A stretch of 64,000 nt of DNA from a virus, in IMG/VR virus record IMGVR_UViG_3300035006_000011, positions 2,208 through 66,207 of that record. One strand, written 5' to 3'. A model generated the notes under the pieces. That model was not told the origin of the DNA and did not search any database. It was given only the letters and a program-made list of their open reading frames with translations. Position numbers and translations under genes: made by a program. Shown here piece by piece: positions 5,032-60,889 of this stretch (its first letter is position 1; each line of letters starts with the position of its first letter).

Positions 5032-5146
5032 TTTGAGGCGATCACATTTTCGAGGTCTATGGGAATTCCCATAGACCTACAAAACAAGAAATATTCTGAT
5101 TGGAATAATTCGGGTCCAATGCACTAAAAAATATTTTGTGCAGTTA

Positions 5147-5175
5147 TTGACACAGCGTACAGACGGCGATACTAT
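5147..5175 (+). promoter_or_regulatory. sigma70-type promoter of KilA-N cassette 1
   Basis: TTGACA-17-TACTAT. Confidence 0.75.
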
Positions 5176-5249
5176 AAATATTAAGCGGTTGAGAAAAGTT
5201 TCTGAGGCTCAATCTCAACCGCACTCCAAGGTTAATTAGAGGTATTTTT

Positions 5250-6032
5250 ATGGTACGCCAAAAAGCGTCACAAGTCATCATGCACGAGATACATGGTGTG
5301 CAAATTGGGCAAAGAAAAATAGACGGTTACATTAATGCTACGGCAATGTGTCAAGCTGGCGGTAAAAAGCTAAATGATTATCTGCGGTTAAAATCCACAA
5401 AAGAGTATTTCCATGCACTTTCTGTGGATACGGGAATTCCCGTATCCGGTAGTAGCAAGGGTTCTGGACTTGTGATTTTAACTGGCGGTAGTTTTGACGA
5501 ACAAGATACTTGGGTTCATTTCGAGGTTGCGGTTGATTTGGGTAAATGGATATCGCCGCAATTTCGCATAGCTGTCAACCGTTGGGTTGTCCAGTGGATG
5601 GCAGGTTCTCAGGTAGAACAGCAGCAATCAAGCGCGATCGCCTTCCTCGTTTCATCTGTTACCCGCGAGTATCGACCTTGGGAGGTGCATTTTACCCCTG
5701 ACTGGATACGAGAAGCTGAACGGTTAACTGGATGGTCTTGGTCTTGGGGTTGCATGGGAGGATTTATTAATAAGTCAGTCTACAATGTGTTGCCAATTGA
5801 GATGCAAGCCAGACTAGATGAAGTCAACCCACCTATTAAAGGTAAGCGAGCAAGAAAGAAGTTTCAGCACGTTACTACCACTGTTGATGAGCAAGTTATC
5901 AAACAATTAATTGCTGAAACATTGGGGATGATGCGCGGTTCTTCTTCCGAGCAAAGCTATTGGCGATCGCACTGTAATGCATATGGTAATGGCGTGCAAT
6001 TGACTTTAGTCCTTGGGGGTTGTGATGAATAG
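5250..6032 (+). CDS. KilA-N + P63C-like DNA-binding protein
   Basis: DGYINATAMCQAGGKKLNDYLRLKST and GTW/HFEVAVDLGKW-type KilA-N motifs; C-terminal RPWEVHF...LDEVNP...KKFQH P63C-like. Confidence 0.85.
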   Translation: MVRQKASQVIMHEIHGVQIGQRKIDGYINATAMCQAGGKKLNDYLRLKSTKEYFHALSVDTGIPVSGSSKGSGLVILTGGSFDEQDTWVHFEVAVDLGKWISPQFRIAVNRWVVQWMAGSQVEQQQSSAIAFLVSSVTREYRPWEVHFTPDWIREAERLTGWSWSWGCMGGFINKSVYNVLPIEMQARLDEVNPPIKGKRARKKFQHVTTTVDEQVIKQLIAETLGMMRGSSSEQSYWRSHCNAYGNGVQLTLVLGGCDE

Positions 6033-6210
6033 ACCTAGAACCCAAGCGCATATTGATGCTGACAACCGATACAAACAAACAGTAAAGCGTGTGCAGTTAT
6101 CGTTTAAAGAGGATTCAGAATTACTTACCTACTTGCGATCGCAAGTAACAACCGACGCGGAAATACCAGCGCTAATCAAACAGATAATCGAAGCCCATAG
6201 GAAAGCATAA
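6025..6210 (+). CDS. Small RHH-like DNA-binding protein
   Basis: KRVQLSF beta strand plus two helices; overlaps upstream stop. Confidence 0.65.
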   Translation: MNRPRTQAHIDADNRYKQTVKRVQLSFKEDSELLTYLRSQVTTDAEIPALIKQIIEAHRKA

Positions 6211-6285
6211 TAAAAAGCGGGAGTACAAATCCCGCTTAACTAGTCAAAAGTAGAGAAAAATGAAAAAGTTAGTTGTTGCTACATT
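6134..6285. repeat. 152-bp perfect direct repeat, copy 1
   Basis: Identical to 7286-7437; begins at T-GCGATCGC (HIP1). Confidence 0.95.
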
Positions 6286-6321
6286 CGCAGTATACCAGCT
6301 TAAAAATATTTTGTGCAGCTA

Positions 6322-6350
6322 TTGACACAATGTGTTGATGACGATACTAT
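6322..6350 (+). promoter_or_regulatory. sigma70-type promoter of KilA-N cassette 2
   Basis: TTGACA-17-TACTAT, same layout as 5147-5175. Confidence 0.75.
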
Positions 6351-6425
6351 AAATTTAAGCGGCTAAGAGAAGTTTCTGACGCTCCCTCTTAGCCGCACCA
6401 CAAAGTCTATTAAGGAATTTGCTTA

Positions 6426-7169
6426 ATGAATATAATACCAAGAAATTGGAATGGCCGCACGATCCGCCAACGCGAGGATGGATATTGGTCTGCTACCGAT
6501 ATGTGTCAGGCTTGCGGAAAGCTTTGGGGTGATTGGAGTAGATTAAGTTCTACAAAAGAATATTTGAAAGTCTTGCAAAACAAGCATTATGCTGATTCCC
6601 ATAATGGTCAACTAATTGATTCTAGTGTTGGTGGCACTCCAGAAACAACAGGTACTTGGGTTTATCGTAAAGTAGCTTTACGTCTTGCTCAGTGGTTGTC
6701 TCCTGAGTTTGCAGTGCAAGTTGACGAATGGGTGGAAGAACTACTGACCACAGGGAAGGTTGAGTTAACCCCGCCAAAAACCCAAGCGGAGATGCTTTTG
6801 ATCTACGCACAGCAATTAGTCGATCTGGAGCGTAGTCAAAAGGCGCTAGAGCAAGAGCAGGAACGGTTAAATCAAAACCAAAAGCAATTGAATCAAAAGC
6901 AGTCGGAACTGACCGACCGCGTAGAACAAGTCGAACACGAGCAAGACAGATTTAACGCACCATGTGGGCACAAATACACGGTTCTTGGTTACTCGAAAAA
7001 GTTGGGGTTGGAAATATCGCTAAAAGAGTCGAGCAATAAAGGGAAGAAAGCAGCTTGTTTGTGTCGCCAAATGGGGATTGAAATTGAACAAGTTGATGAC
7101 CCGCGTTTTGGGATGGTTGGGTTGTACCCTCAGTCAATACTTGCTCAAGTTTTTGGCGAGGGGCTGTAA
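6426..7169 (+). CDS. KilA-N protein with coiled coil and antirepressor-type C-terminus
   Basis: IRQREDGYWSATDMCQACGK...GTWVYRKVALRLAQWLSPEFAVQV; C-terminal DPRFGMVGLYP. Confidence 0.85.
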   Translation: MNIIPRNWNGRTIRQREDGYWSATDMCQACGKLWGDWSRLSSTKEYLKVLQNKHYADSHNGQLIDSSVGGTPETTGTWVYRKVALRLAQWLSPEFAVQVDEWVEELLTTGKVELTPPKTQAEMLLIYAQQLVDLERSQKALEQEQERLNQNQKQLNQKQSELTDRVEQVEHEQDRFNAPCGHKYTVLGYSKKLGLEISLKESSNKGKKAACLCRQMGIEIEQVDDPRFGMVGLYPQSILAQVFGEGL

Positions 7170-7170
7170 G

Positions 7171-7362
7171 ATGCCTGCTAAAAGAAAACGCACTCAAGCC
7201 AACATCGATGGCAATCGCCGATACCAACAAACGGTTAAGCGGGTAATAGTGACATTTAAACGAGATTCGGAATTGCTTGATTGGCTGCGATCGCAAGTAA
7301 CAACCGACGCGGAAATACCAGCGCTAATCAAACAGATAATCGAAGCCCATAGGAAAGCATAA
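7171..7362 (+). CDS. Small RHH-like protein, paralogue of 6025..6210
   Basis: Identical C-terminal LRSQVTTDAEIPALIKQIIEAHRKA. Confidence 0.65.
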   Translation: MPAKRKRTQANIDGNRRYQQTVKRVIVTFKRDSELLDWLRSQVTTDAEIPALIKQIIEAHRKA

Positions 7363-7437
7363 TAAAAAGCGGGAGTACAAATCCCGCTTAACTAGTCAAA
7401 AGTAGAGAAAAATGAAAAAGTTAGTTGTTGCTACATT
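7286..7437. repeat. 152-bp perfect direct repeat, copy 2
   Basis: Identical to 6134-6285; includes terminator AAGCGGGA...TCCCGCTT and start of the 7412 gene. Confidence 0.95.
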
Positions 7438-8614: not shown

Positions 8615-8750
8615 GTTTGTAACGAAATATTACATAAGGCTGCAATAGGTTGCAAGTGGCTTAATAATGCAGTATATTAAAAACATAGAGAGCGCCAACC
8701 GGGAAAAGCAACGCTCTCTATGTTTTTTGTAAACTTTCTAAGGATCTACA

Positions 8751-9548
8751 ATGTTAAGTTTAATTGAAGTCGAAAACCAAATCAAGAGCGAAATTACAGT
8801 TAATGCCGATGGTACGGGGAAAGCTACGGTTAGAGGAACTGCAAAGATTGTAGGGGTATCCCAATCTGCAATATCTCAGTCATTGTCAAGTGATAAGCTG
8901 GGAGTATCGGGATTGTCTGTATATCTTGTCGCTAAAGGGTTTGAGATTGATAAGCTATCTTTGTTCTTGGCAAGCGGAATTCCAGATTTAGCGGTTGCCG
9001 CGATCGCATCCTACTACGCAATGCACGCTGGCAGATATTGTACCGAGATTGCAAAGATGGCTTGCGAAGTGTTTCAAGCGATCGGAGTCAGGACTTGGAT
9101 GCAAAAGATTGTAGGTTGGGAAGTAGCGGCTATTACAACACCAAACATCGAAGCTGACGCGGTAATGTTGTTGGAAGGGATGACGGTTTTAGCCAAAGGC
9201 ATTAAAAAAGCAACTTCGGATATTCGTAACGACATTGCATCAAGCAATGTAATCGTTGTTAGTGAGGTTCGTGAAGTCGCTACCAATTCCGAAGAGAGAA
9301 TCAGTGCAAAAGTTGATGCGGTGCAAGCCGAACTACTTAATATTCGTCAACTAGTCGAAAAACCAACAATCGTTGAACAAGTAAAAGCCCCACGTCGCAA
9401 GTCGCAAGACCAAAACATTAATATCCACGTTCCAAACGAGTCCCGGTACTTAGAATTAATTGCAATTGCCGAAAGTTCTGGAATGTCGCGCTCTCAATTC
9501 TTTTACGAAATCATCGAAAAAGCAATGGAGGTCTGTGTCAATGGCTAG
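8751..9548 (+). CDS. Antirepressor-like protein: N-terminal HTH, C-terminal RHH-like module
   Basis: TVRGTAKIVGVSQSAIS HTH; C-terminal SGMSRSQFFYEII; TTGCAA-17-TATATT promoter and leader hairpin upstream. Confidence 0.7.
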   Translation: MLSLIEVENQIKSEITVNADGTGKATVRGTAKIVGVSQSAISQSLSSDKLGVSGLSVYLVAKGFEIDKLSLFLASGIPDLAVAAIASYYAMHAGRYCTEIAKMACEVFQAIGVRTWMQKIVGWEVAAITTPNIEADAVMLLEGMTVLAKGIKKATSDIRNDIASSNVIVVSEVREVATNSEERISAKVDAVQAELLNIRQLVEKPTIVEQVKAPRRKSQDQNINIHVPNESRYLELIAIAESSGMSRSQFFYEIIEKAMEVCVNG

Positions 9549-9693
9549 GACAGCGAGATTCAGCGTAGACTTGACTGAGTTTGAAGAAGACATTAACCAA
9601 ATTGCAGAAGACGAAGGACGTACTAAGGCAAATACGATTCAGAGGCTAATCAAGGAAGCGATCGCAGCACGTAAAGAAAAGGCGAACAAATAA
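9541..9693 (+). CDS. Small RHH (CopG-like) protein
   Basis: RFSVDL...IAEDEGRTKANTIQRLIKEAI. Confidence 0.75.
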   Translation: MARTARFSVDLTEFEEDINQIAEDEGRTKANTIQRLIKEAIAARKEKANK

Positions 9694-9698
9694 AACGA

Positions 9699-9736
9699 CA
9701 AAAAGACCATCACCTGTTAGCGTGATGGTCTTTTTG
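9699..9736. terminator. Bidirectional intrinsic terminator
   Basis: CAAAAAGACCATCAC-8-GTGATGGTCTTTTTG between convergent genes. Confidence 0.8.
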
Positions 9737-11206
9737 TTATGCCACGCGCCAAACATAAAGATGGTTATTTGCTGCACTTCCATCAATTTGAGAAGAAGAA
9801 ATCACACTGCTAGCTCCAATCGCCTGAGTTATCACGTCAATATCTAACATCGTCCCCGCTGAAAGCTGTTCAAACCGGAAGCCTTGTTGCTTGTTGGTAA
9901 ACGTGGCTTGCGTTGCTCCGTAAGCATAATTAAAAAAGTCACCAGCATCGACACCAGTACTTAAGTTCGCCAACATTGACCGGAAGCGAATTTGAACTTG
10001 CCCCTGCGACGATTGATAGTTACCTGTAATAGTTGCCTGCAATGCCACCATAAACAAATAGTTACCAGCTTCGGCAATTGTAATAATGCCATTGCTGTCT
10101 AGTATTGCACCTTGGTTTATTACCCTTGGGTTCCAAACGATTGTAGTCCGATTATCTTGCCCCAAAGCAATAACCGATGTTCTTCTTGCAAATATCAAAG
10201 GAGACGGCAACTTCCCTGTAGCAAGTTGCGCGATCGCGTCCTCAACATATTGGGCGGTCGGTACTTCCGTCCCCTTTTCACCCCCTGCAACCGGGAACGT
10301 TAGTGCGGGACGTTTCACCGCACCCGTCATCACTGGGTTATTTCGCGGTAGTCCGGCAGCAACAGTTAGGTAATTACTTAAATCCGGATTGGGAATAGAG
10401 GCTAGAGCGTCTCTAACGTCCCCTCTTGCAGCTGCCTCACTGCTTCCCGTCCAGTTGGTTGCATTGTACCCAACTATTTGCGCCCCTGTCCCACCGGTTG
10501 CACCCTTTGCTGCAATCATTAACCAGTTTGCGTTATCGCCAGTTGTAGGAGGTTGTTGATTTTGGGCAGGTGTTGCGCTTCTCCAAACATAACTATTGCC
10601 GTTGAAACTAACAATGTCGTTCAACGAGTAAATAGTGTTAACCGCATAAGCTCCACGGATTGCAAATTTTGAGGATATGCGATCGCGGTAAGTTGCCACC
10701 GTCGTCAACAACTCCGCCAACCTTGACAATCCAATATCAAACCACGGGAATTGAGACGGAATACCAATCAACGAAGTGAAAGAGACGGGAGTTGCGCTGT
10801 CGGGTGCTTGAGCGTGAAATGCGTCTTGTATTGGGATGTTTTGATTGGCAACTACACGATCAAGCAGCCGAGAGGTGGTGTCATGGACGCTTCCTGTGTA
10901 CCACTTAGAATCGGTTGCCCATTGATGAACTGGTCCAATGTAGGTAGTCCCGTCAAGTAGATAGTAACTAATAACTGATTTTGTCTCAAACAATTCCCAT
11001 TTGTAAGTCACTCCCTCTGACCCTACGCCTTGCAAATTTTGTGTCTGTGGAAGGGTGAGGGTAAACGTTGATGAAGTGATTGTCGCTTCGTATGCGCTTA
11101 CAACTAAAGTAGGGGGATTTGTAGAATTATCGATAAACGGATGATCCGGAGTTGCACGAACTAATCCTGTGATGTTGCCGCTGATCTTGCCTGTAATTTG
11201 AACCAT
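9737..11206 (-). CDS. Tail fibre/receptor-binding-like protein
   Basis: YSLNDIVSFNGNSYV...WLMIAAKGATG (CBM-like plus collagen-like start); C-terminal GIITIAEAGNYLF. Confidence 0.7.
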   Translation of the reverse strand: MVQITGKISGNITGLVRATPDHPFIDNSTNPPTLVVSAYEATITSSTFTLTLPQTQNLQGVGSEGVTYKWELFETKSVISYYLLDGTTYIGPVHQWATDSKWYTGSVHDTTSRLLDRVVANQNIPIQDAFHAQAPDSATPVSFTSLIGIPSQFPWFDIGLSRLAELLTTVATYRDRISSKFAIRGAYAVNTIYSLNDIVSFNGNSYVWRSATPAQNQQPPTTGDNANWLMIAAKGATGGTGAQIVGYNATNWTGSSEAAARGDVRDALASIPNPDLSNYLTVAAGLPRNNPVMTGAVKRPALTFPVAGGEKGTEVPTAQYVEDAIAQLATGKLPSPLIFARRTSVIALGQDNRTTIVWNPRVINQGAILDSNGIITIAEAGNYLFMVALQATITGNYQSSQGQVQIRFRSMLANLSTGVDAGDFFNYAYGATQATFTNKQQGFRFEQLSAGTMLDIDVITQAIGASSVISSSQIDGSAANNHLYVWRVA

Positions 11207-11884: not shown

Positions 11885-12112
11885 ATGAATTGGCGAAATG
11901 CGGTTACACGCAACTGGAAAACCACCACTATTGGTTCTGTCACGGCAGTAAGTGGGTATATTGCTATGTTTCCCGTAGGATTCACAGCGGAGGCTGTCAA
12001 CTTAGCCAGATATATTCAAGTAGGTGGGTTTGCTTCATTGGGATTGGTTTCCAGAGATTTTGACACAGAAAAGCGGGTACCGAAAGATACTCGCGACGAT
12101 GGAATAACTTGA
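11885..12112 (+). CDS. Putative holin
   Basis: 75 aa, NWKTT motif, two hydrophobic segments, charged tail; start MNWRN inside the track ORF 11456..12112. Confidence 0.65.
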   Translation: MNWRNAVTRNWKTTTIGSVTAVSGYIAMFPVGFTAEAVNLARYIQVGGFASLGLVSRDFDTEKRVPKDTRDDGIT

Positions 12113-12127
12113 TTAAGCTGTGTCAAG

Positions 12128-12926
12128 CTAGAAGTCAAATAGTTTTTGCTGAAACTGTTCGCCAACAAGTCGAGCAAACAAATCTTTAAATTCTTGTTCA
12201 GAAGGGCAGGCATTGACAATCATCAGTACCTTGTCAAAGTGCTGTTTGTGCTTTTCAGTGGCGTTTTCTTCTAGCCATTGGTGGATGGTTTGCTTTCTAT
12301 GTCCGTTGCTTTGGACAGGATTGTTCTTGTCTAGCTTTGCTCGTTCGTTTGCATCTAAAGTGTGATAAATGAACGACCACATCCAGTTGGCTAACTTAGG
12401 GTGGTTGCGTCCCACTTTTGAGAAAAGATGCCACCTTGTCCATATTTTTGTCGCCAAACAACGGATGAGACTTGCGAGGTTTGTCCATGATGCGGTTATC
12501 GTCTTCGCGTCGTTGCTCAATTGTGCGGCAAGTACCGTAAACTTGGTCAAAGCGATCGCGTAAGGAGTCTTTGCCCAAAGCATCAAGAATGATTTCAGCT
12601 TTCACATTGTCGTTTTTATCCTCAAACCGCCATAAAGTAAAAGCATCGTCAAGCGACAATGTTTCGGCATAGCGGGACTGCTTTCCGTCGTAATATTTGA
12701 CCGCTAGGGAAACCCAGGTAAACCCTTTACTAGCAAGTCTTCGAGCTTTGTCAGGCGCGTGGTACGGCAACCTAGCTAAATAGTACTTAGCAACACTAAT
12801 TGCTTTCAATACCTGAGACTGGCTCATCCGATACTCGCTAGTCTCTGTTATCCGAATTGCATCAAATTCTAAATCGCCGATATATAGTTTAACTGCCTCG
12901 GCTGGGCTATAATCTTTTTTAGCCAT
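12128..12926 (-). pseudogene. Frameshifted P63C-family antirepressor-like gene
   Basis: ORFs 12396..12926 and 12128..12586 join by a +1 indel near 12415-12420 (CTC AAAA GTG versus CTT AAA GTC in paralogue at ~47295). Confidence 0.8.
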
Positions 12927-13093
12927 CTTCGTACCTCGAATACGTTTATGGTTGCGTGGGCTGATTGATAACCGGGATGTCTCACCATCCCTTTGCCCAT
13001 TTAAATAATTGTATCAGCAAAAATACACCGTGCTTGCATCGACACAATAAATATTTTTGCTGTAAACTACTGGAAGTATATACAACTGAAGTT

Positions 13094-13306
13094 GTGACTA
13101 TTTACTGCGATCGCGTCTTGTCAGGTGAACGAATTAAAAACTTGCGAGAAAAACATGAACTTTCACAGGGGCAATTGGCGTACTTGATAGGAGTTCGCCA
13201 ACAGTCTGTAGCAAAGTATGAAAAAAGAGGAGTGAGGAATTACTGGGTAGTGCAAAGGGTTGCGATCGCGCTTGGAATTAAACTTTCGGAGATATGGGAG
13301 CCATGA
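13094..13306 (+). CDS. XRE-family HTH protein
   Basis: IKNLREKHELSQGQLAYLIGVRQQSVAKYE; GTG start assumed. Confidence 0.8.
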   Translation: MTIYCDRVLSGERIKNLREKHELSQGQLAYLIGVRQQSVAKYEKRGVRNYWVVQRVAIALGIKLSEIWEP

Positions 13307-13446
13307 CGAATGAATTAGCCTTATGGCAAGCTGCATTAAATGCGATCGCTATTGCTAGAGCTTGTCAAAACATTTACACGCCAAGGACGGATAACCTTGA
13401 TGCTTGGCTAGCAGCAGAGGAGAGATTAAGTGCCGACAGCAGGTGA
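13303..13446 (+). CDS. Small hypothetical protein (47 aa, not in track)
   Basis: ATGA overlap with HTH stop; MTNELALWQAALNAIAIARACQNIYTPRTDNLDAWLAAEERLSADSR. Confidence 0.4.
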   Translation: MTNELALWQAALNAIAIARACQNIYTPRTDNLDAWLAAEERLSADSR

Positions 13447-14308
13447 AGCTTTCCGAATTGCCCAACGCTTTGACAAGTCTTTGGCGACTGCTGAAGACAA
13501 CACCATTGCCCGAATTAACCAAATTCTGCTCAATTCCTATCTCAAGTTAGAAAGGACAATGCGGTTAAAGTGGGACGAAATGGAGCGCGATCGCCCTTTT
13601 CTTCCAGCCCAACGGCAACTACTCGTTACTGAGCAGCTAGGCTATTTGTTGCAGTTGATTAACCCACAGCAACAGTCCGCAATTGAAGCGATGTTTGGAG
13701 AGTTGTTAGCCTTTGCGTCAAACCACGGAGTTAACCTTGCTGATGCTTTATTGGGCGATGCCGCTATGTTTTCGGCTGTACCAGTGGAGGCGATCGCTTA
13801 CTCAGCCACAGAATCCTATAATCGACTCCTCCGACATGGGGATGATTTTGCCTCTAAAGCTAGCATTGCAATTGGTGAGGGATTGGCTCAGGGATGGGGA
13901 GCGCAGAAAATAGCAGGAATATTGAAAGAGCAATTAGGAGTTACAAGGTGGAGGGCAGAAGCGATCGCCCGTACCGAATCAATCAAAGCATACAGTAACG
14001 CCAGTCAGCAAAAATATAATGATGCAGGTGTTGAGGAAGTGGTATGGGTTGCTGTTAGGGAGGGGGTCTGCAAATTTTGTACTTGGCGTAATGGCAAGGC
14101 TTTTAAATTAGGTTCCATCATCCACCCTGGTCACGTAAATTGCAGGTGCTGCCTGATTTGCAGGGTAGGAGATATTGCAGATAATGATTTTTGGCTAAAT
14201 TATTCAGATCAATTGACAGGCGATCCGGGACTAATGCCATTTGAAAAAGCTGCGGGAATGGCGATCCCGCCTAAACCGACATGGATACCAAAAAGAAAAG
14301 ACGGATAG
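13430..14308 (+). CDS. Minor head protein (SPP1 gp7 / Mu F-like)
   Basis: RAEAIARTES ... CKFCTWRNGK ... HPGHVNCRC signature. Confidence 0.9.
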   Translation: MPTAGEAFRIAQRFDKSLATAEDNTIARINQILLNSYLKLERTMRLKWDEMERDRPFLPAQRQLLVTEQLGYLLQLINPQQQSAIEAMFGELLAFASNHGVNLADALLGDAAMFSAVPVEAIAYSATESYNRLLRHGDDFASKASIAIGEGLAQGWGAQKIAGILKEQLGVTRWRAEAIARTESIKAYSNASQQKYNDAGVEEVVWVAVREGVCKFCTWRNGKAFKLGSIIHPGHVNCRCCLICRVGDIADNDFWLNYSDQLTGDPGLMPFEKAAGMAIPPKPTWIPKRKDG

Positions 14309-14323
14309 AACAATCTATCCGTC
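14300..14323. terminator. GACGGATA-N8-TATCCGTC palindrome (copy 2)
   Basis: Provides the KDG-TAG end of the minor head gene; between convergent genes. Confidence 0.8.
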
Positions 14324-14352
14324 TTTGAGTGATAGGAAAGCTTTTGTACTGG

Positions 14353-15105
14353 CTACTGAATACCGGGGATTGGAAGTTGTCCTATGCATTCAGGACGCGC
14401 TACCCGCGTGTTTTGTCGCTTTTTCTGCTGGTGAAATCGGAAATATTGCTCGGTTTTAACTCGGATTACAGCAGGTAATTTGGTAATATCTGTGCCACGA
14501 CGCGATCGCAACGACATTACCAAGATATTGAACGTATCAATGCTTAACCGCATCTTCCCGTCCACTAGTTCAAAATCAACCGATTCAACAAATGCGACTT
14601 GCACTGCATCTTTAAGTTGGTGCTTATGGACAATACCCGATACTTGATGCAACTCTTCTAATGTTTTCGGGAAAGCAATTTGACTTTCTGTTTCGGTTGA
14701 TTTTGATTCAAGTTGAGCAATGCGTGCTTTGAGTGTTTCAACTTCTGGGTTCGGATCGGAGAATAGCGATCGCTCCAAGTTGACGCGGTATTGCTTCTCT
14801 ATTTGGATCAAGTAATCAAGGTACTCTGCCCCTGCGACAGTGTTAGCTCGTGCTAACGCAAACTTGTAACTATCGACTGTTAAGTAAATCTTATTGAAAT
14901 CCTCCGAATGATTATAAAGCAGCGCCAATTGGCGCAAGCCTTGCTCTACAACAGGCTTGAGTCCTGAGCGTTTAAGTAAGTATCTTTTTGCGTCTGATCT
15001 TCTGCTATAGCCAAAGCTTTCCCAAACGGCATCAAAGTCAATCGGGAATTGTTCCCCGTCGCGCTCTGCTTCGAGCGCATCTAAAATGTATGTTTCTGTT
15101 AGCAT
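14353..15105 (-). CDS. AntA/AntB-like antirepressor
   Basis: FPIDFDAVWESFGYSRRSDAKR; IYLTVDSYK; ends QLPIPGIQ. Confidence 0.75.
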   Translation of the reverse strand: MLTETYILDALEAERDGEQFPIDFDAVWESFGYSRRSDAKRYLLKRSGLKPVVEQGLRQLALLYNHSEDFNKIYLTVDSYKFALARANTVAGAEYLDYLIQIEKQYRVNLERSLFSDPNPEVETLKARIAQLESKSTETESQIAFPKTLEELHQVSGIVHKHQLKDAVQVAFVESVDFELVDGKMRLSIDTFNILVMSLRSRRGTDITKLPAVIRVKTEQYFRFHQQKKRQNTRVARPECIGQLPIPGIQ

Positions 15106-15234
15106 GGTTTTGTCGCCTAGTAGAGTAGGTGATCTGTCAGCGGCAATGGGCTAGGTGCAAACTAGCCTTGCTGGCATTAAAATATATTGTATCTTAAAAC
15201 GCACAAATAATTAATTAGCGACACAAAATAATTT

Positions 15235-15807
15235 ATGGTACGTTATTTTCTCGACACAGAATTTATTGAAAACGGGTCAACTATCGATTTGATTAGCATT
15301 GGAATTGTTTGTGAAGACGGACGGGAATATTACGCTATCAATTACGATTGCGATCGCACCAAAGCGGATAATTGGGTGAAAAAGAACGTCTTAGCATTTT
15401 TACCTCCTGAACCATATCCACAGCTTTTTAGGGATAGAAAAGCTTTTGAAGAGTCAGAAGTATATAAACAAGGATGGAGAAACAGGGCACATATAGCTAC
15501 AGAAATCTTAGAGTTTGTTAGGTGGAATAAGAAAAAGCCATATTTTGTAGAAGGTGAAAAGCCTGAGTTTTGGGGTTATTATGTATCTTATGATTGGGTT
15601 GTTTTCTGTCAACTATGGGGGAAAATGATTGACTTGCCAAAAGGCTTCCCAATGTACATAAATGACATCAAGCAACTTTGCAACCAGCTAGGCGATCCAG
15701 AATTGCCAGAACAAGGAAAGGAAGAACATCACGCGCTTAATGATGCTAGATGGAATAAAAGGGCATGGCAGTTTCTAAAAGACAGAGAGGGATTTGGGAG
15801 AAAATGA
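15235..15807 (+). CDS. DEDDh 3'-5' exonuclease (Rv2179c/DUF5051-like)
   Basis: YFLDTEF, SYDWV, HHALNDARW. Confidence 0.85.
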   Translation: MVRYFLDTEFIENGSTIDLISIGIVCEDGREYYAINYDCDRTKADNWVKKNVLAFLPPEPYPQLFRDRKAFEESEVYKQGWRNRAHIATEILEFVRWNKKKPYFVEGEKPEFWGYYVSYDWVVFCQLWGKMIDLPKGFPMYINDIKQLCNQLGDPELPEQGKEEHHALNDARWNKRAWQFLKDREGFGRK

Positions 15808-16031
15808 AGCAATCGAAACTAGTTGAATTAGCAAACAAAGCGATCGCCAGATGGAACGACCCAGACCTTCCAGAATTGCCGGGTTCCCCAGTAGTAAAAA
15901 TAGTTGCATCAAAGCTTGCTTCTGAACTAGAAATTCATCCGCAGGTAATTGCAACTTATTTGGGAACGACAAGCAGTAATAAGCACGTTTATAATATCCC
16001 CGCAAGCGCAATTATTGAATATTTCTCATGA
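15804..16031 (+). CDS. Hypothetical protein
   Basis: Coupled to both neighbours by ATGA overlaps. Confidence 0.55.
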   Translation: MKQSKLVELANKAIARWNDPDLPELPGSPVVKIVASKLASELEIHPQVIATYLGTTSSNKHVYNIPASAIIEYFS

Positions 16032-17629
16032 ATGTACTTGAAAAGCAACTTTTGGGCGGCGATCGCGCTTTTGAATTTCTCAACATCAGAACGGATGGCG
16101 TAACGCCTATTCCTGGTAAATCAAAAGAAGACGTTCGCCGTGATTTTGCGGCAGGTTTGCTATCGCGATCTGACGCTTTGCAAATGCTTGGGTATGAGGA
16201 CGAGGGTATATCAGAACGTGCTGACGCAGAGTACAAAATTGACTGGCAACCCAACACTCTATCTTCATCCACTGAATCAGGAAGATTTATTGATTTTGAG
16301 GAATTAGACGGGAAAGAATGGGGCGATCGCTCTATCTATTTAATTCAACGCTCCAATGCTGGCGACCTGTTTGCTGTCGGGTATGAAAATGAAGAGGTTG
16401 CAGAAGAGGCGTATCTTACAATTGCACCTTTGAATGGATACCTAGGAATTGAGGAGATAACCAGTGACAGTGAAAGAAGCGATAGCCTCCGGTTGGACAG
16501 GAATTATGTGCGCGATTCTCGTGGTCGTTTTGCTCGTGTGGCTGGAAACTCACAGCCAAAAGAGGTAGTTGCGCTAGATCGAATTAATTCCAAAACTAAC
16601 ATTGCTCAGTTAAAGGCGATCGCTGATAAGCATGGAATTGCGGTTCCCAAGTCTGCACACAAGCGAGAATCTTGGCGGCAAGCGATTAAATCGCACCCAG
16701 AAGGCAGCCCATATTTTGAGAAGAAGCCGCGAGCCAAAAGTCCAATACCAGGGAAGAGAAAAAGTAGTTTAGAACAGAGAATATTTCAGACTGATTTTTC
16801 GGATCATAAACAAATTATCTTTCTAGGAAAATTTTTAGCATCTGAACACATTAAATCGTCTGAACCATCGGAAGAGGAATTACAAGCGATGGAATCTCGC
16901 AACGAATTTGGGAAAAAAGCACAAGCAGCGTTGAAGGCAAGGAACACAAAGGAAGCAAACAAGTATATTAACTCTTTTCATAAAGCGGAAAAAAAATACG
17001 AAGCTTTAGCTTCTGAAAGGAAACAAGCGCTAGTTATTGAACACCAGAATCTTAAAGATGCGATCGCAAAGCATCACGGGTTGTCACCATCCGTGAAAAA
17101 CGCGATGGCTGAATCAGTTGTATATGATCTCCCAAAAGCGTCACCTAAGGAAATAAAAGAAATAAAAGATCATCTTGCCGAATTTTATGGATTATCTGGC
17201 GGAAAAGGAGCAGTTTCTTATGTAGAACATTCTAGCGATAGAGCGTTCGCCAACGAACAGCAAAGCTTAATCAACGTTGGCAATAAAACCAATAAAGAAA
17301 TTATTTTTCATGAATTAGGTCATCATGTAGAATACAATTCTTCATCAGTCCAGTCGGCTGCGCGAGATTGGGTAAAAAGCAGAGCAACTTCCCAAACGCC
17401 AGCAAAGCTCTCCGATCTCACTGGAAGCAAAACTTACGGAAATGATGAAATAGCTTTGCCCGACAGCTTCATATCTGCTTACGTAGGAAAGGTTTACGCT
17501 CACGGATCTACAGAAGTATTGAGCATGGGTGTTGAACATTTGGCAGAGCCAAAAAAAATGATTTATCTTCACCAGCAGGATATCGAACATTTTCACTTTA
17601 CTATAGGAGCATTGTTAAATGCAAATTAA
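16028..17629 (+). CDS. Multidomain head-associated protein with C-terminal zincin metallopeptidase
   Basis: RDSRGRF motif, HeH/LEM-like AQLKAIADKHGI, HELGH ... TEVLSMGVE zinc-binding motif. Confidence 0.7.
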   Translation: MNVLEKQLLGGDRAFEFLNIRTDGVTPIPGKSKEDVRRDFAAGLLSRSDALQMLGYEDEGISERADAEYKIDWQPNTLSSSTESGRFIDFEELDGKEWGDRSIYLIQRSNAGDLFAVGYENEEVAEEAYLTIAPLNGYLGIEEITSDSERSDSLRLDRNYVRDSRGRFARVAGNSQPKEVVALDRINSKTNIAQLKAIADKHGIAVPKSAHKRESWRQAIKSHPEGSPYFEKKPRAKSPIPGKRKSSLEQRIFQTDFSDHKQIIFLGKFLASEHIKSSEPSEEELQAMESRNEFGKKAQAALKARNTKEANKYINSFHKAEKKYEALASERKQALVIEHQNLKDAIAKHHGLSPSVKNAMAESVVYDLPKASPKEIKEIKDHLAEFYGLSGGKGAVSYVEHSSDRAFANEQQSLINVGNKTNKEIIFHELGHHVEYNSSSVQSAARDWVKSRATSQTPAKLSDLTGSKTYGNDEIALPDSFISAYVGKVYAHGSTEVLSMGVEHLAEPKKMIYLHQQDIEHFHFTIGALLNAN

Positions 17630-49006: not shown

Positions 49007-49726
49007 TTATGATCCGAGGTTTAAGGTGAGTTGGGTATGCCCGTTCTTGAAAATAAAACAAGCTTTCGGGAATAAAGCATTTTTGGGAGTTTTTAGAGCT
49101 TTGTTGACACGGCAATAATAATCCCAATCTAGGGTCACTGTTTGTCCAACTTGCTCTACATCTATGCCTCGAATGGTGCGGCTAGCAGCAATAAAAGAAT
49201 AGAAAATCGGGTTACATAACCACAACGTTGAACCATTCCACTGATAGTCTTTTCCTTCATCTAGATAATCCAGTAGTCGTCGCATTGTGGCGTAGCGGCT
49301 ACGATGCCCGGTTATTTGAACCGCTGCATCAAAACAGTAATCAAAGCGAGTTGGGTCTAGTTGTGGGTTAACTTGAGGATTAAGACTGCGCTCTAAGCTA
49401 GCGCGGATTTGTTGTTTTGCTGCCTCAAAGTCAGCTATCAAATCGGCTTTTTTTTCCGCGACTTTCCCAATGTTTCGAGATAAAGCAAGTAATAAATTGC
49501 ATTGCGGCTCAGTCAACAATGCATATTTCTCCGGCATCCCTACCTTTCCCGATAGTGAGGTTTCAAACCTCACTATTCCAAACCTGCTTTCTATAAGGGG
49601 TTGGTATTTCTTAAGCGTATCGCTGAACCAAAACCGATGTTCTACCTCGATAATATCCCTACAATAAACTCGGCTGTCAATTAAAGCAACGTCGCTTTCT
49701 ACTTGAACATACTGTAATATTGTCAT
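49007..49726 (-). CDS. Rha-family regulatory protein with AntA-like second domain
   Basis: IDSRVYCRDII, YALLTEPQCNLL...KKADLIADFEAAK; AGGAG RBS before MTILQ; ends QLTLNLGS. Confidence 0.75.
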   Translation of the reverse strand: MTILQYVQVESDVALIDSRVYCRDIIEVEHRFWFSDTLKKYQPLIESRFGIVRFETSLSGKVGMPEKYALLTEPQCNLLLALSRNIGKVAEKKADLIADFEAAKQQIRASLERSLNPQVNPQLDPTRFDYCFDAAVQITGHRSRYATMRRLLDYLDEGKDYQWNGSTLWLCNPIFYSFIAASRTIRGIDVEQVGQTVTLDWDYYCRVNKALKTPKNALFPKACFIFKNGHTQLTLNLGS

Positions 49727-49924
49727 TGTGCAAACTCCTAGATTGTTTGTACTGGCGATACCAAAGGTCGCCAAAGGCATCGCAGTGGTAATGACACTGC
49801 GATCGCCTTTCAATTTTGACCTAACTAATTAATCGTTGAGCATAGTGTTCAACTTGCTGCCAATTAGCAAAATCGTCTTGGCAGTTGCAATTGCACATTG
49901 CTTCTTGGGGTAATTGGATGATTG

Positions 49925-50697: not shown

Positions 50698-51056
50698 TGT
50701 ATTGTCCTTACTAATGACTCTGTTTGGATAATGCGATCGCTTACTTCTTGGCTGGAGGGCGATCGCTTTTAATTTGGGGATAACCCAGAGGTATTGCAGG
50801 GATTGCACCTGCCAAACCGCTAACCGGATACCACGAATTTTTCTAAGCTGTAAAATTCTAAATCTGCTAAGAGGGTCAATTTATAAAGCGGGAACGTCTC
50901 TTTAACCTGCCGCCTCGGATATTGTTTATTCACCTTCCCGAATTCTGGTGATTGCCGCAACTCGGTTTCCCTCATCGCTCATACAAATATAGTAGCGGGT
51001 ATACTCGCTTGTGTCAATACATTTGCTAAAAATATTTTAGAAACACAAATAAAAAA

Positions 51057-51083
51057 GACGGATAACAATGATTGTCATCCGTC
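51057..51083. terminator. GACGGATA-N11-CATCCGTC palindrome (copy 9)
   Basis: A6 and T6 tracts; additional CCGTCTTT half-site at ~51101. Confidence 0.78.
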
Positions 51084-51087
51084 TTTT

Positions 51088-51264
51088 TTATTTTATTAGC
51101 CCGTCTTTCTTTATCTTGTCGATTACTGCTTGGCGTAACCAGTCTGATTTATCGGGAAGCGATCGCAACACGGAGTCATAAGGCTCACCGATCTTAAAAC
51201 TGTGAGGTGTAAGCTTGCGAGGTAAGTTTTTATCTCCGGTGAATTCGTGGTCTTTGAACGGCAT
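51088..51264 (-). CDS. Small RHH-like protein (58 aa, not in track)
   Basis: MPFKDHEF...SFKIGEPYDSVLRSLPDKSDWLRQAVIDKIKKDGLIK. Confidence 0.6.
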   Translation of the reverse strand: MPFKDHEFTGDKNLPRKLTPHSFKIGEPYDSVLRSLPDKSDWLRQAVIDKIKKDGLIK

Positions 51265-57902: not shown

Positions 57903-57950
57903 ATAGGGCATACACCATTCAAATCAGTAGTGTACGCCCTATATTGAAAA

Positions 57951-57976
57951 GACGGATAAATTGAATTCTATCCGTC
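57951..57976. terminator. GACGGATA-N10-TATCCGTC palindrome (copy 10)
   Basis: Convergent genes; T7 tract. Confidence 0.8.
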
Positions 57977-58003
57977 TTTTTTTATTTATTTGTGGTTGTG
58001 GTG

Positions 58004-58525
58004 CTAGCGTAGCAATGCTTGATGTTCTTGGCGGCATTCAACCACTAGTTGTACGTACTCGGAGTTAGTTAATCCGCCAAATAGAGTTGCTCGGTATGCT
58101 TGTACTGCTTCTCTTTTGATTTTGGCTTTGGCACCCGGCTCTATTTCAACTATTTGAATTGATTGGAAGGCGATCGCGCATTTGGTTTCAAGACTTTCTG
58201 CCATCAGGGCGGCGACTATAGCGTCGGCTTTGATGTTGTCAAAAGCCAACTGCCTACGCCAAAAAGCTTCTGCTATTTCGCGGGGAACAGCAACAATAAA
58301 GCCAGCCGATGCTGTTTCAGCAGCTACTTGACGTAATGTGAAACCTGCCTCCAGTAACAATTTACCGCGCTTTGTTCGTAAAAAAGACGTAATGTCAGAT
58401 TGCTTTTTCCCAACAACTTCCGCCGTTTGAGTTTGGCTGAAACAGTAGTTACCATCCGGTAATCTAAATGCCTCAACTGTGATATCAGCTATTTAAATTG
58501 TGGAGCGAATTGCTTTAAGATTCAT
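58004..58525 (-). pseudogene. Antirepressor-like gene with premature stop
   Basis: ATG 58525, in-frame TAA at codon 11, then IADITVEAFRLPDGNY, same family N-terminus as 24434 and 12926. Confidence 0.75.
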
Positions 58526-58624
58526 GAGTGCATTCCTGTTCACTAGGTTTGTACAAAATAATGGGCAGATGCTATCAACATTTGCCCATTTCAATTGTTG
58601 TATACGGATTTGCACAGAATTAAA

Positions 58625-60889
58625 TCACTGACACAAAGAATTGACGTCAACCACTTGGTTTGGTACTGATTCCTTAACTCTAAACACCGTAGCCAAAATC
58701 CGATCGCCCGACAGCCCATTAACAATCCCAGTCTTTACTCTTCCAAATTTCCCAACAGCAACATAGTAATTCTGGTTGCAATAGCGATATTCCCAGATCA
58801 AGCGATCGCCCTTCTTCCTTTGGTAAAGGTAGCCAGTATGAGCGTCGCCCATAGGACATTTTTGCGGCTCTATTTCAACTTCCATCGCAGGCTTGAAAGT
58901 GAATTCGATAGTTTCCCATGATGGTCCGTTTTCTGGATTGTCATGAAAGAGTTGAATCTTAGATGCTGGGAGAGAAATGCTTGGTTGACATGGAATCTTT
59001 TTGTCCCAGATGTAAGCAGCGATCGTGCAATTGTCAGTAGCCCATCGCTTGCCGTCTTTGTCCTTGCGAAACTTAAATCGAGGTAACGTAATTTTCCGTG
59101 TGTAGGAAAAGTCATACAACCAATCTCCTCTATCTTCGCAAGGTTCATCCCAAGTTGTGCGAAGCAGCATCACAATTCCGCGCTTGGCATGATTGTAAGC
59201 GTTAATCAATATCTGAGTTGCTTCTGCACCATATGGTGGGTTTGTAAATACCCAATCTGTTTTCGGAAAATTAGCCCAATTATCTGCGATCGTTGCATCT
59301 ACGTGATAATCAGCATGAACCTCAAAATTGATATCGTTAGTCCAAGTGTCGCACCCCATCAGATTTAAACTTTTGGCAAGAATACCGCCGCCAACACAGC
59401 ACTCTCCTACAGTTCCATGTAAATCAACATAGGGGGCGATGGCAGTTACAAACCAATGTGGGCTATCGTAACGGTCTAATTCATGGCGGGTAATACGAAC
59501 TGTTGGAGTTTCACCAGGGAGAAAAGCAAACCTTATAACCCACACCTCTTTAGATGAATCACCATCAAAATATTTATCAATAAATTCTTTAGTTGTCGAA
59601 ACCATGCCGCCCTCTGCTGACACATCGCTTATAGGCATATCAGATAATTTCTCTTTATATGGTAAACAAGCTAACTTGCACCAACCAATCTGTTTTCCCC
59701 CATATCTTTTATCCTTATCTAGTGCCGCAACGCGATCGCCTCTCTCGTAAGCTTTAATAAATTTTTGTGCGTGACTATCTTTCCAATCCCTTCGGGTTAC
59801 TGTCTTAGCTGGTAAATACTGAGCAGTCCATCCAAAACTAATTTGCAACCCGCAGGTCGATTCAACAGGTTCTGTTTGTTGGTGTTCCATTGTAGGTGTT
59901 TGCAATTGAATTAATTGAGCCATCAAACTTAAAAACAATTGAGATGCAAATAGCGGTGGAACGCTATAGCCAAGCATCTGCCCGGAAACTGACAAACAAG
60001 GATCTAGCTCATACCATTCTGGAAAACCTTGGAGTCGAGCGATCGCAGGAATCGTAACTTGTTTTACTGTCCCATCAGGCAACCAAATATCAGCAAACCT
60101 GTTTCGGTTATTTCCGTTTTGGTCGGTAAAGAAACTTCGGCGAATAGTATTTGCACAGCGATCTGAAGGCACGGCCCTAATCTCGCAAGTTCGGTGAATA
60201 AATAACGGGTTCTTACCCTTAGCTAAGGGTAACTGAGCTTTTACGAGGTTTGAGTCAGGCATCGAGGGAATTAGATCCGCGATCGCCTCATACCAACTGA
60301 TACGATCTTGTTTTGGTGGTAATTCAGGAAGAAAATCCTTGCAAGCCAAAACAACTATTCTTACCCTAGCTTGCGGTAACCCCCAATCTGCCATATTGCA
60401 AACAGCAATCGCAGTTTGGTATCCGTCAACGTCAAGTTGAGATTTGATTATTTCCCAACTCCGTGATTTTTGATAACGGGGGACTTGCTCTAAAGTGAAA
60501 ACTTTTGGTTGCAAAACAGTAATAGCCTTTGCAACTGCCTCCGCACAATCAATATCAACTTGAGTTTCTTCGCCGCCCGTTTTCGCTGGGCTAAAGTTGG
60601 AGCATACTGGAGATGCGTGTAAAAAATCAGGGGTACGCGGTATTCCTGGGAAATTCAATCTTGCTACATCTTGAACTGACCGACGAATTAGCTTGCAACC
60701 ATATTCTTTAAAATTGCGATCGTGCATATCAGCTAAACTTGCCGATAACTCCGGTTTAGTAGGGTCAAACTCTACCGCGCATACTGGGCGTATTCCAGCT
60801 TCAATCAAACCACATTCAACTCCGCCACCACCTGAAAATAAAGTAACAGCGACGGGTGCCTTTTTATCTATATCTAATCTAGGTTTCAT
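58625..60889 (-). CDS. Fusion: C5-cytosine MTase + ASCH-like domain + amino (N6A/N4C) MTase-like domain
   Basis: LFSGGGG, SPVC, LEQV, QARVR; KTVTRRDW; ECCVGGG and TNPPY. Confidence 0.85.
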   Translation of the reverse strand: MKPRLDIDKKAPVAVTLFSGGGGVECGLIEAGIRPVCAVEFDPTKPELSASLADMHDRNFKEYGCKLIRRSVQDVARLNFPGIPRTPDFLHASPVCSNFSPAKTGGEETQVDIDCAEAVAKAITVLQPKVFTLEQVPRYQKSRSWEIIKSQLDVDGYQTAIAVCNMADWGLPQARVRIVVLACKDFLPELPPKQDRISWYEAIADLIPSMPDSNLVKAQLPLAKGKNPLFIHRTCEIRAVPSDRCANTIRRSFFTDQNGNNRNRFADIWLPDGTVKQVTIPAIARLQGFPEWYELDPCLSVSGQMLGYSVPPLFASQLFLSLMAQLIQLQTPTMEHQQTEPVESTCGLQISFGWTAQYLPAKTVTRRDWKDSHAQKFIKAYERGDRVAALDKDKRYGGKQIGWCKLACLPYKEKLSDMPISDVSAEGGMVSTTKEFIDKYFDGDSSKEVWVIRFAFLPGETPTVRITRHELDRYDSPHWFVTAIAPYVDLHGTVGECCVGGGILAKSLNLMGCDTWTNDINFEVHADYHVDATIADNWANFPKTDWVFTNPPYGAEATQILINAYNHAKRGIVMLLRTTWDEPCEDRGDWLYDFSYTRKITLPRFKFRKDKDGKRWATDNCTIAAYIWDKKIPCQPSISLPASKIQLFHDNPENGPSWETIEFTFKPAMEVEIEPQKCPMGDAHTGYLYQRKKGDRLIWEYRYCNQNYYVAVGKFGRVKTGIVNGLSGDRILATVFRVKESVPNQVVDVNSLCQ

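Follow-up and report, generated by a model that had tools for sequence, protein, structure and literature searches.

In T4-type phages, PeSL (promoter-early stem-loop) cassettes are non-essential genes that have conserved motifs, a promoter and a stem-loop/terminator, on their flanks (Arbiol et al. 2010, PMC2839356; Comeau et al. 2014, PMC4122927), and recombination between these motifs explains insertions, deletions and replacements between close relatives (PMC2839356, PMC4122927). Here we describe a set of small transcription units, called cassettes below, in 64,000 nucleotides (nt) of viral DNA (IMG/VR record IMGVR_UViG_3300035006_000011, positions 2,208 to 66,207; hereafter the window), which correspond to C22:25556-89555 of a host genome assembly and lie in a 72.9-kb prophage. 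The phage of the window, W, was compared with four relatives: R, a 51-kb contig of a Calothrix metagenome-assembled genome, came from a genome collection, while J (an 84-kb JGI contig, compared over 21.8 kb), K (an ENA contig of 11.2 kb) and M (a 60.7-kb JGI contig, compared over 41.5 kb) came from protein look-ups. Cassettes are named after the start of their open reading frame (ORF), for example c5250.

On balance, we judge it likely that the cassettes are accessory autonomous transcription units of a temperate cyanophage, moron-like in layout and PeSL-like in behavior, with a role in conflict through docking on the sliding clamp. A unit would comprise a phage-specific promoter (class A or class B, see below), a 5′ stem-loop leader, one gene for a two-module protein and, usually, a bidirectional terminator with a GACGGATA stem. 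The N-terminal module would be a DNA-binding domain of the Bro-N, KilA-N, Ant, ORF6N or Rha type, and the C-terminal module would vary (P63C/BstA-C-like, RHH or a basic linker). As conserved flanks, promoter/leader and terminator may serve as portable homology for recombination, which would both move cassettes and shuffle transcription blocks.

The W units resemble PeSL cassettes in that W, M and R share the promoter class and the terminator stem, and in that the promoter at site 51037, as well as 4 of 19 class B promoters, directly abuts a terminator; at the same site, M bears a whole extra cassette between two terminator copies. There are several differences. First, W is temperate, cyanobacterial and unrelated to T4. 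Second, its units are dispersed through the structural genes, whereas PeSL cassettes are grouped in hyperplastic regions. Third, the cargo belongs to one protein superfamily, as opposed to assorted ORFans. Fourth, promoter and terminator usually sit at opposite ends of a unit, and junctions do not always fall within the motifs. Fifth, the W units bound a large inversion and a general reshuffling of blocks.

Other systems share further features. Like the morons of lambdoid phages, reportedly described by Juhala and Hendrix in 2000, a cassette is a single gene with its own predicted promoter and terminator that interrupts a conserved operon and is missing from relatives, as seen for c8751 relative to J and for c35743 relative to R and M. 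Unlike morons, the cassettes number about 15 in the W genome, use two standard promoter types, encode one domain-shuffled family and are in many cases antisense to the surrounding operon. In the immI region of phage P22, ant is accompanied by genes for the RHH repressors Arc and Mnt. The W units of class A likewise place an Ant-like gene and an RHH-like gene in one small operon behind a strong (predicted) sigma-70 promoter; here, however, the RHH-like gene lies downstream of the Ant-like gene, three Ant-like proteins have an RHH-like C-terminus of their own, and there are five such modules per genome. Tailed phages usually carry one to three genes of the KilA-N/Bro-N/Ant type, in contrast to about 15 in the 73 kb of W. 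Multi-copy families dispersed over single genomes are found in large eukaryotic DNA viruses, as with the bro multigene families of baculoviruses. As elsewhere in the superfamily, the same N-terminal DNA-binding modules are freely joined to different C-modules; proteins with KilA-N, Bro-N, Ant, Rha, ORF6N and P63C domains are domain-shuffled regulators of DNA viruses (Iyer, Koonin and Aravind 2002, as related in PMC6145125). Finally, BstA, a prophage-encoded abortive-infection protein composed of KilA-N and a second domain, acts at phage DNA replication sites (Owen et al. 2021, PMC8585504). PHROG matches to the BstA family (4e-9 to 5e-6), partly covering c5250, c6426 and c8751, link it to the W cassettes, but those to PHROG 6287 are partial and N-terminal, the PADLOC BstA model is essentially unmatched, no aba self-immunity element was identified, although no search was aimed at one, the host is cyanobacterial, and W has many diverse copies rather than one. 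New here are the density of units, the two standard promoter classes, one of them found before cassettes only, the dispersal among structural operons, often in antisense, the link to block shuffling and the conserved clamp motif.

Cassette inventory and regulatory signals

The initial annotation had listed 14 cassette starts, and all of them correspond to real units or features; 12 have open ORFs and two (c46792 and c58525) are broken. A fifteenth unit adjoins the window on the left, where a 276-residue Bro-N gene (C22 23349-24179) lies behind a class B promoter. The label antirepressor-like does not fit c35743, which belongs to another family (phrog_5931). Their supposed location between structural and replication modules was not borne out: they mostly sit between structural-gene blocks, and no single structural/replication boundary is involved.

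The class B motif reads TTTGTGTC(G/A), about 14 nt, GTGC, about 10 nt and TACAAT, and it precedes seven cassette starts. Written as TGTGTCR, about 25 nt and TACAAT, it is located at 13008-13046(-), 15186-15225(-), 20425-20464(+), 24315-24354(+), 43445-43484(+), 46675-46714(+) and 58597-58635(-). An nhmmer profile made from these seven sites gives exactly 8 matches across the 7.9-Mb genome. None falls outside the prophage, and each immediately precedes a cassette ORF; the eighth, which was not in the training set, precedes the Bro-N gene left of the window. The same profile finds 7 sites in M and 4 in R, and in W, M and R it never matches before a core gene. Of the eight window units to which a class B promoter had been ascribed, c35743 has a degenerate version only (nhmmer E=0.33). 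Class B combines a good -10 element and conserved TTTGTGTC and GTGC boxes with no -35 element, and such a promoter would probably be activator-dependent, like a middle promoter.

Class A is a consensus sigma-70 promoter. The arrangement reported for it, TTGACA/TTGCAA-17-TAnnnT, is present at all five units concerned (5147-5175, 6322-6350, 8650-8678, 32127-32155(-) and 40874-40902(-)), and the stricter pattern TTGACA-N16-18-TAnnnT occurs 8 times in the window versus 2.1 expected. The units of c5250 and c6426 carry, in addition, the upstream AAATATTTTGTG box of class B. A small gene with the RHH (strand-helix-helix) pattern lies downstream of every class A ORF, overlapping its stop codon or near it, as had been described. 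Pfam RHH_5 backs two of the five (9460-9693 at 1.1e-5 and 39755-40018 at 2.4e-3, both just under the cut-off), the other three being recognized by sequence pattern only, together with paralogy links. The class A promoter would probably be autoregulated by the co-transcribed RHH protein, in the way that Arc and Mnt act on ant in P22. Outside the cassettes, a class A promoter at 50989-51017(-), with its upstream box reaching to 51037, abuts a terminator palindrome at 51057-51090 and is predicted to drive small non-cassette genes.

Leader hairpins, claimed for both classes, were recovered by folding in all fourteen leaders, with z-scores mostly of -1.6 to -5.3 and the weakest at -0.04 (c24434) and -1.1 (c32044). 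Searches with Rfam at gathering thresholds and for tRNAs gave nothing in the window. The GACGGATA palindrome is present in 30 copies versus 0.96 expected and is concentrated, genome-wide, in the W prophage; R uses the same stem. Judged by their composition (A-run, 8-bp stem, T-run), the copies are predicted bidirectional terminators at transcription-unit ends. Six of the eight class B units do end at such a palindrome, counting the variant at 47617.

Gain, loss and replacement among relatives

The core proteins of R, J, K and M are 55-99% identical to those of W, and M is the closest relative (capsid protein 99% identical). Sequence comparison indicates that, between these phages, cassettes have been gained, lost, replaced, truncated, flipped and recombined. 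Inheritance in fixed places was checked in the four relatives and the outcome spoke against it, in support of the exchangeable cassette system that had been proposed: only c32044 and c40787 are kept in place, and only in M. Two units are clean insertions. The first, c8751 with its RHH gene, occupies 1,122 bp exactly between a stop and a start codon that abut in J (L009 7588/7589), and the second, c35743, occupies 1,086 bp (35639-36724) that R and M lack, its junction showing the microhomology GTGAAA. K has no c24434, and its fibre, W23836 and portal genes follow one another directly.

In R and M the slot of c15105 lacks the cassette and has unrelated short ORFs instead, and M has a 58% identical c15105-type gene downstream of the portal gene, in the slot that c20560 occupies in W. 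The position separating the capsid from the tail operon is filled by c32044 in W, as in M, by an HNH endonuclease (2e-69) in R and by a KilA-N/BstA-like gene in J. The slot of c40787 holds an unrelated 248-residue ORF in R, with the small RHH gene retained at 90%; that of c58525, beside the methylase gene, holds a different Bro-N cassette in R, in opposite orientation. Other slots show truncation or rearrangement: that of c43599 is truncated in M and empty in R and J, that of c46792 has in M an intact 253-residue copy in opposite orientation plus an orphan class B promoter, and c49726 is represented in R by a copy with a class B promoter, a different C-module and a different position, and in M by an internally deleted copy.

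Within W itself, c5250 and c6426 are tandem units with a period of 1152-1175. Their promoters are 84% and their 3′ flanks 86% identical, with 90.5% identity in a 221-nt blastn core; the ORF proteins share only 38%. Like flanks around divergent ORFs are the pattern expected if ORFs had been swapped between conserved flanks.

Where copies are conserved, they are under purifying selection. The M copies of c32044 and c40787 are 93% and 98% identical, with ratios of nonsynonymous to synonymous substitution (dN/dS) of 0.12 and 0.04, and conserved cassettes range from 0.04 to 0.15, like core genes. The R orthologue of c20560 is 87% identical and sits in another genomic context; the synonymous divergence (dS) between W and R is 0.53 for c20560 versus 1.35 for the major capsid gene, which suggests lateral exchange of this cassette.

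These comparisons bear on a conservative explanation, namely that the units are ordinary, vertically inherited early regulators, the shared promoter being an early promoter and the differences reflecting divergence and assembly noise. The two cassettes kept in place in M at 93-98% would agree with it, as would the class A promoter at 51037 that also serves non-cassette genes. However, most slots differ despite flanking genes that are 70-99% identical, the insertions and deletions are base-precise, and the class B promoter is confined to cassettes in W, M and R. Furthermore, the W arrangement is identical in an independent assembly of the source reads. We consider this explanation very unlikely, and the relatives already largely refute it.

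The exchange of cassettes is linked to larger rearrangements. Relative to M, W 13076-24300 (about 11 kb, from the Mu-F to the portal genes) is inverted, with junctions at the promoter-proximal ends of c12926(-) on the left and c24434(+) on the right, which are paralogues in inverted orientation. At the first junction, M 1-367, equivalent to W 11899-12278(+), joins M 361-962, equivalent to W 24440-23843(-); at the second, M 9497-9727, equivalent to W 13306-13076(-), adjoins M 9850-10025, equivalent to W 24284-24458(+). One cassette of M is chimeric, resembling c12926 in its N-part and c24434 in its C-part. Transcription blocks are ordered and oriented differently in each of the five genomes; for example, the P2-I tail gene is followed by different fibre genes, and the portal gene has differing neighbors. 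Among tailed phages with 55-99% protein identity, such shuffling of structural blocks is unusual.

Perfect inverted repeats between cassette 5′ ends were considered and rejected, the respective pairs being 88% (c12926/c46792) and 82% (c15105/c43599) identical. An integron or shufflon was also set aside; no attC-like repeats were noticed, and nothing ties the sole recombinase identified, a serine recombinase located at the prophage end, to the cassettes. The M portal gene (L016 1655-4324) encodes 889 residues, the C-terminal 150 of which are homologous to the C-terminal part of the W 16028-17629 protein; the N-part of the same W protein is a separate gene in M. A domain has moved between two head genes.

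A second explanation would make the cassettes selfish, homing-type elements that target cassette-free genomes during co-infection, in the manner of the free-standing homing endonucleases of T4, and bring the phage no benefit. They share an intergenic niche with the free-standing HNH endonuclease of R, show clean presence/absence polymorphisms and include decaying copies, and a passage in PMC8263062 places Bro-N-type domains in homing endonucleases of other phages. Yet no nuclease domain (HNH, GIY-YIG/T5orf172 or LAGLIDADG) was found in the W cassette proteins scanned with Pfam, PHROG and PADLOC, the conserved copies are under strong purifying selection, and the junctions reveal no common target site. 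A universal insertion site was in fact among the candidates rejected: the TTGTGTC motif is present at the c35743 junction but missing at that of c8751, and there is therefore no common crossover site. We regard the homing explanation as decidedly unlikely and retain that of exchangeable, accessory cassettes.

Two further observations concern genes in such positions. In R, two apparently paralogous genes of about 220 residues lie in intergenic slots (L008 6251-6925 and 2112-2774, that is, R 46251-46925 and 42112-42774), one slot being that of c32044; the first is the free-standing HNH endonuclease (PHROG 2.4e-69), and the second shares only N-terminal sequence with it by eye. In W, a gene at 22871-23608(+), whose product has two winged-helix domains (HTH_5, HTH_IclR), is placed in antisense between the portal gene and its upstream neighbor. 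This gene also occurs in M but not in K, ends in a near-perfect palindrome (46/47 nt) shared with a convergent gene, and resembles a further inserted unit without a class A or B promoter.

Single units, their proteins and the source prophage

The five class A units are laid out as follows. The first, c5250 (5124-6285, plus strand), has a leader stem-loop at 5185-5222 (z=-3.5), an ORF at 5250-6032 for a KilA-N and P63C protein ending in QLTLVLGG, and an overlapping RHH-like gene at 6025-6210; its 3′ flank recurs at 7192-7437 (repeat D1). Its tandem neighbor c6426 (6299-7437, plus) has a stem-loop at 6360-6395, a KilA-N ORF at 6426-7169 and an RHH-like gene at 7171-7362 that is 80% identical to the one of c5250. 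The third, c8751 (8615-9736, plus), is antisense within the minus-strand tail operon and has a stem-loop at 8680-8726, an ORF at 8751-9548, an overlapping RHH gene at 9541-9693 and its own terminator at 9703-9735; the protein has a HTH/KilA-N-like N-domain (PADLOC HTH 1.3e-11, PHROG BstA-like 4.6e-6) and an RHH-like C-terminus. Antisense between the capsid and tail operons, c32044 (31007-32155, minus) comprises a leader at 32045-32125, an ORF at 31196-32044 for an ORF6N/anti-repressor-like protein with an RHH-like C-terminus, an RHH-like gene at 31039-31212 and a terminator at 31007-31030. At the head of the helicase operon, c40787 (39755-40902, minus) has a leader at 40788-40860, an ORF at 40011-40787 for a protein with an Ant-like N-domain and an RHH-like C-terminus, and an RHH gene at about 39755-39940.

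Four class B units have an undivided ORF. Antisense between the Mu-F gene and the next head-operon gene lies c15105 (14300-15233, minus), with a promoter at 15186-15233, a leader at 15106-15180, an ORF at 14353-15105 and a shared terminator at 14300-14323; its Ant-like N-domain is followed by a C-terminal end GQLPIPGIQ. The unit of c20560 (20417-21389, plus; promoter 20417-20464, leader 20470-20559, ORF 20560-21342, terminator 21365-21389) encodes a protein of Bro-N-like fold ending in NQLSLF. That of c24434 (24307-25220, plus; promoter 24307-24354, leader 24360-24433, ORF 24434-25168, terminator 25195-25220) encodes a Bro-N/Ant-N-like N-domain and a P63C-like C-domain, and that of c43599 (43437-44285, plus; promoter 43437-43484, leader 43490-43598, ORF 43599-44285) an Ant-like N-domain with the C-terminal end GQLSLFD.

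The other three are split or broken. In c12926 (12128-13056, minus; promoter 13008-13056, leader 12927-12998), a c24434-type gene is split by a frameshift into an N-domain ORF at 12396-12926 and an overlapping ORF for a P63C-like C-domain at 12128-12586 in another frame (phrog_2384, 7.6e-11). Its broken paralogue c46792 (46667-47648, plus; promoter 46667-46714, leader 46720-46791, terminator-like palindrome 47617-47648) is interrupted by an in-frame stop following codon 47 and shifts frame near 47177. In c58525 (57951-58643, minus; promoter 58597-58643, leader 58526-58590, terminator 57951-57976), the frame at 58004-58525 of about 174 codons has a stop at codon 11. The frame change between N-domain and P63C-like domain is the same in c12926 and c46792 (46792-47500); either the split is older than the duplication, or the two-ORF form is functional.

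Two units stand apart. The unit of c35743 (35639-36763, plus) has a degenerate class B-like promoter, a stem-loop at about 35685-35717 (leader z=-4.2), an ORF at 35743-36714 and a shared terminator at 36740-36763; its protein belongs to phrog_5931 (PHROG 5e-35), and the K homologue has a weak ParB-like match. The cassette-like c49726 (49007-49810, minus; ORF 49007-49726) has two strong leader hairpins at 49727-49810 (z=-5.3) and encodes a Rha-like protein ending in TQLTLNLGS, with neither a class A nor a class B promoter in W.

Hidden Markov model annotation only partly supported the domains named initially. KilA-N (PF04383) was confirmed in c5250 (71 bits, 8.6e-20) and c6426 (79.5 bits, 2.1e-22; cut-off 23.8) and in no other cassette, and P63C (PF10546) in c5250 (35.4 bits, 1.7e-8; cut-off 26.1), which matches phrog_2384 as the C-domain ORF of c12926 does. 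Bro-N (PF02498) exceeds its cut-off in no unit but the one left of the window (28.2 versus 25.6 bits), c20560 and c24434 having fold-level likeness only (TM-score 0.52; E about 1e-3). Below the cut-offs are Rha (PF09669) in c49726 (17.9 bits, cut-off 29.9; phrog_2657 at 7.7e-8) and ORF6N (PF10543) in c32044 (25.3 bits, 1.9e-5; cut-off 27.8), and ANT/AntA (PF03374, PF08346) gave no Pfam match even at E<=5 for c15105, c20560, c43599 and c24434. More generally, Pfam had no match for c15105, c20560, c24434, c43599, c35743, c40787, c12926 or several neighboring genes. An AlphaFold2 model of c24434 (mean pLDDT, the predicted local distance difference score, 80) resembles 'Mx8 p63 C-terminal domain' proteins of the AlphaFold database (E 2.7e-6) and, in its N-domain, Bro-N/Ant-N models (E about 1e-3); a fold search of the PDB with it returned weak matches only (DdrC, APSES/Mbp1, Dachshund), none at E<=1e-3.

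A BLAST network among the cassette proteins shows that modules are shared in different combinations. An Ant-like N-domain is common to c15105, c43599 and c40787, and a third N-domain to c12926, c24434 and c46792, c58525 being joined to these by a shared motif seen by eye only. A C-module links c15105, c43599 and c20560, an RHH-like C-terminus c8751, c32044 and c40787, and a P63C-like C-domain c5250, c24434 and c12926. By these similarities, the proteins are domain-shuffled combinations of KilA-N, Bro-N/Ant-like, ORF6N or Rha N-domains with P63C, RHH or linker C-modules.

A classical antirepressor array, each protein inactivating repressors of W or of co-resident prophages with the RHH partners acting as Arc and Mnt do, must be weighed here. 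PHROG anti-repressor (Ant) families match c40787 (3.9e-9), c43599 (2.3e-7) and c32044 (1.9e-5), covering about 60-150 residues in the N-terminal half of each protein, and every one of the five class A units couples an Ant-like gene to a small RHH-like gene. Nevertheless, fifteen antirepressors against one repressor are hard to justify, Pfam recognizes no ANT/AntA domain, and the C-terminal clamp motif and the P63C modules are foreign to characterized Ant proteins. In addition, tblastn of the cassette proteins against the host genome, a search not directed at other prophages, found no paralogue outside the prophage except one sequence on another contig that partly matches the left-hand Bro-N unit (57%). 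Such an array is unlikely in our opinion, and the reading as accessory cassettes for conflict is preferred.

The cassettes are confined to the phage lineage of W. The host genome (7.9 Mb, GC content 41%) has 726 HIP1 sites per Mb, a density that identifies the host as a cyanobacterium, of filamentous type and HIP1-rich. The prophage spans window positions -3,895 to +68,995 (C22 21660-94550). It splits a luciferase-like monooxygenase gene (N-part C22 21238-21669, C-part 94545-95246; Pfam profile positions 1-110 and 107-309) and has a large serine recombinase gene at its left end, outside the window (region C22 21238-23029), which together establish an integrated prophage. Phage genes in the window include those for terminase, baseplate J, Mu-F, portal, scaffold-like DUF2213 and major capsid proteins, a P2-I tail protein, an M23 tape-measure-like protein, an SF2 helicase, a C5 methylase and a primase-polymerase. 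In contigs of the source run, host flank and prophage have equal depth (about 615-636) and a 10.9-kb contig crosses the left attachment junction; there is therefore no sign of induction. This DNA run was the only one found to contain the sequence. For the same reasons, a 72.5-kb Logan contig, which ends at the repeated flank 6134-6285/7286-7437, was rejected as an excised, circular, high-copy phage genome. There is no close cultured phage (best portal identity 26%), megablast of 20 kb of W against 50,697 phage records gave no match, and portal-based scans of IMG/VR and JGI metagenome contigs gave no relatives.

Some neighboring features deserve mention. At its right end the prophage encodes an HTH protein (possible repressor) and a DnaB helicase. 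HIP1 (GCGATCGC) occurs 2.06 times per kb in the prophage versus 0.71 in the remaining host genome and 2.0-2.6 times per kb in related phages (L006-L009, L012, L016, L017), so the phage lineage is about three-fold richer in the signature palindrome of its host than the host itself. The SF2 helicase gene (36770-39547, minus) contains a 343-residue in-frame insert (residues 313-655; 37583-38611) that is missing from the M and R orthologues and has no Pfam match; it starts with CLDLETEV and ends with VGN followed by Cys, an intein-like signature. A small protein is encoded at 48530-49003 (minus), and its M orthologue (88% conserved) is annotated as GGDEF by JGI.

The C-terminal motif and possible roles

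The sequence QLxL occurs within the last 12 residues of 4 of the 92 window ORFs, and all four are cassettes (hypergeometric p about 2e-4). Among homologues of c43599 from other metagenomes, nine of ten end in QLSLF, QLELF or QLNLF (QL[SEN]LF) behind linkers that vary, and most homologues of c24434 end in Qx[DE][LIM]F (YQLDLF, KQLELFR, WQKDIFD). C-terminal QLxLF is the consensus of the bacterial beta-clamp motif (PMC4549789). A predicted complex of the c20560 tail with the host DnaN scored 0.60 versus 0.01 for the best control, which the tool grades as 'weak support'; the runs agreed in at least 41% of contacts, with a partner pLDDT of 34-40. Since many cassette proteins end in QLxLF, they most likely dock their DNA-binding modules on the host sliding clamp at replicating DNA. 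In the literature searched, we found no description of a conserved C-terminal QLxLF clamp-type motif for the KilA-N, Bro-N, Ant, Rha, ORF6N and P63C families, and the BstA paper does not mention the clamp (PMC8585504).

The role of the cassettes would probably lie in phage-phage or phage-host conflict, as BstA-like exclusion or replication takeover, rather than in virion production. Going further, we can imagine, with some reserve, a recombination-driven arsenal of clamp-tethered DNA-binding proteins that block or redirect the replication of rival DNA. An antirepressor-like superfamily would here dock on the host beta sliding clamp through its C-terminal QLxLF peptide, the standard promoter/leader/terminator flanks would let the cyanophage lineage swap weapons, and the reshuffling of gene blocks would be a side effect.

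Having raised these possibilities, we would note several points that weigh against exchangeable cassettes maintained for conflict. Breaks or splits affect three of the eight class B units in the window, and some are therefore decaying and not useful. Insertion junctions have microhomology or none, rather than a single common crossover site, and the low share of class B promoters that abut a terminator means that the composite PeSL arrangement is not the rule. Several domain assignments are below Pfam cut-offs. PADLOC detected no convincing known defence system, its BstA model giving 0.006 for c8751 and nothing for the others, and clamp binding is predicted from a short motif together with an in-silico score that is weak. 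The activity and timing of the promoters and the function of the terminators are predictions from sequence. Lastly, R, J, K and M are metagenomic contigs; the independent assembly check covers the W arrangement.

Until now, T4-type phages have supplied most documented cases of mobile promoter/terminator cassettes; here such cassettes are seen in a temperate cyanobacterial lineage, where they are linked to an unusually scrambled order of structural blocks among phages that share 70-99% identical proteins. Cyanobacterial prophages are rarely described, and the genetics of phage-host conflict in Nostocales is almost unexplored. The cassettes are candidate exclusion or takeover genes, and their compact promoters and terminators are potentially useful as parts. 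Phage proteins of the antirepressor, Bro, KilA and P63C types are abundant and poorly understood, and the conserved C-terminal clamp motif suggests that they act at replication forks; if true, this would suggest how BstA-like proteins find replicating phage DNA.

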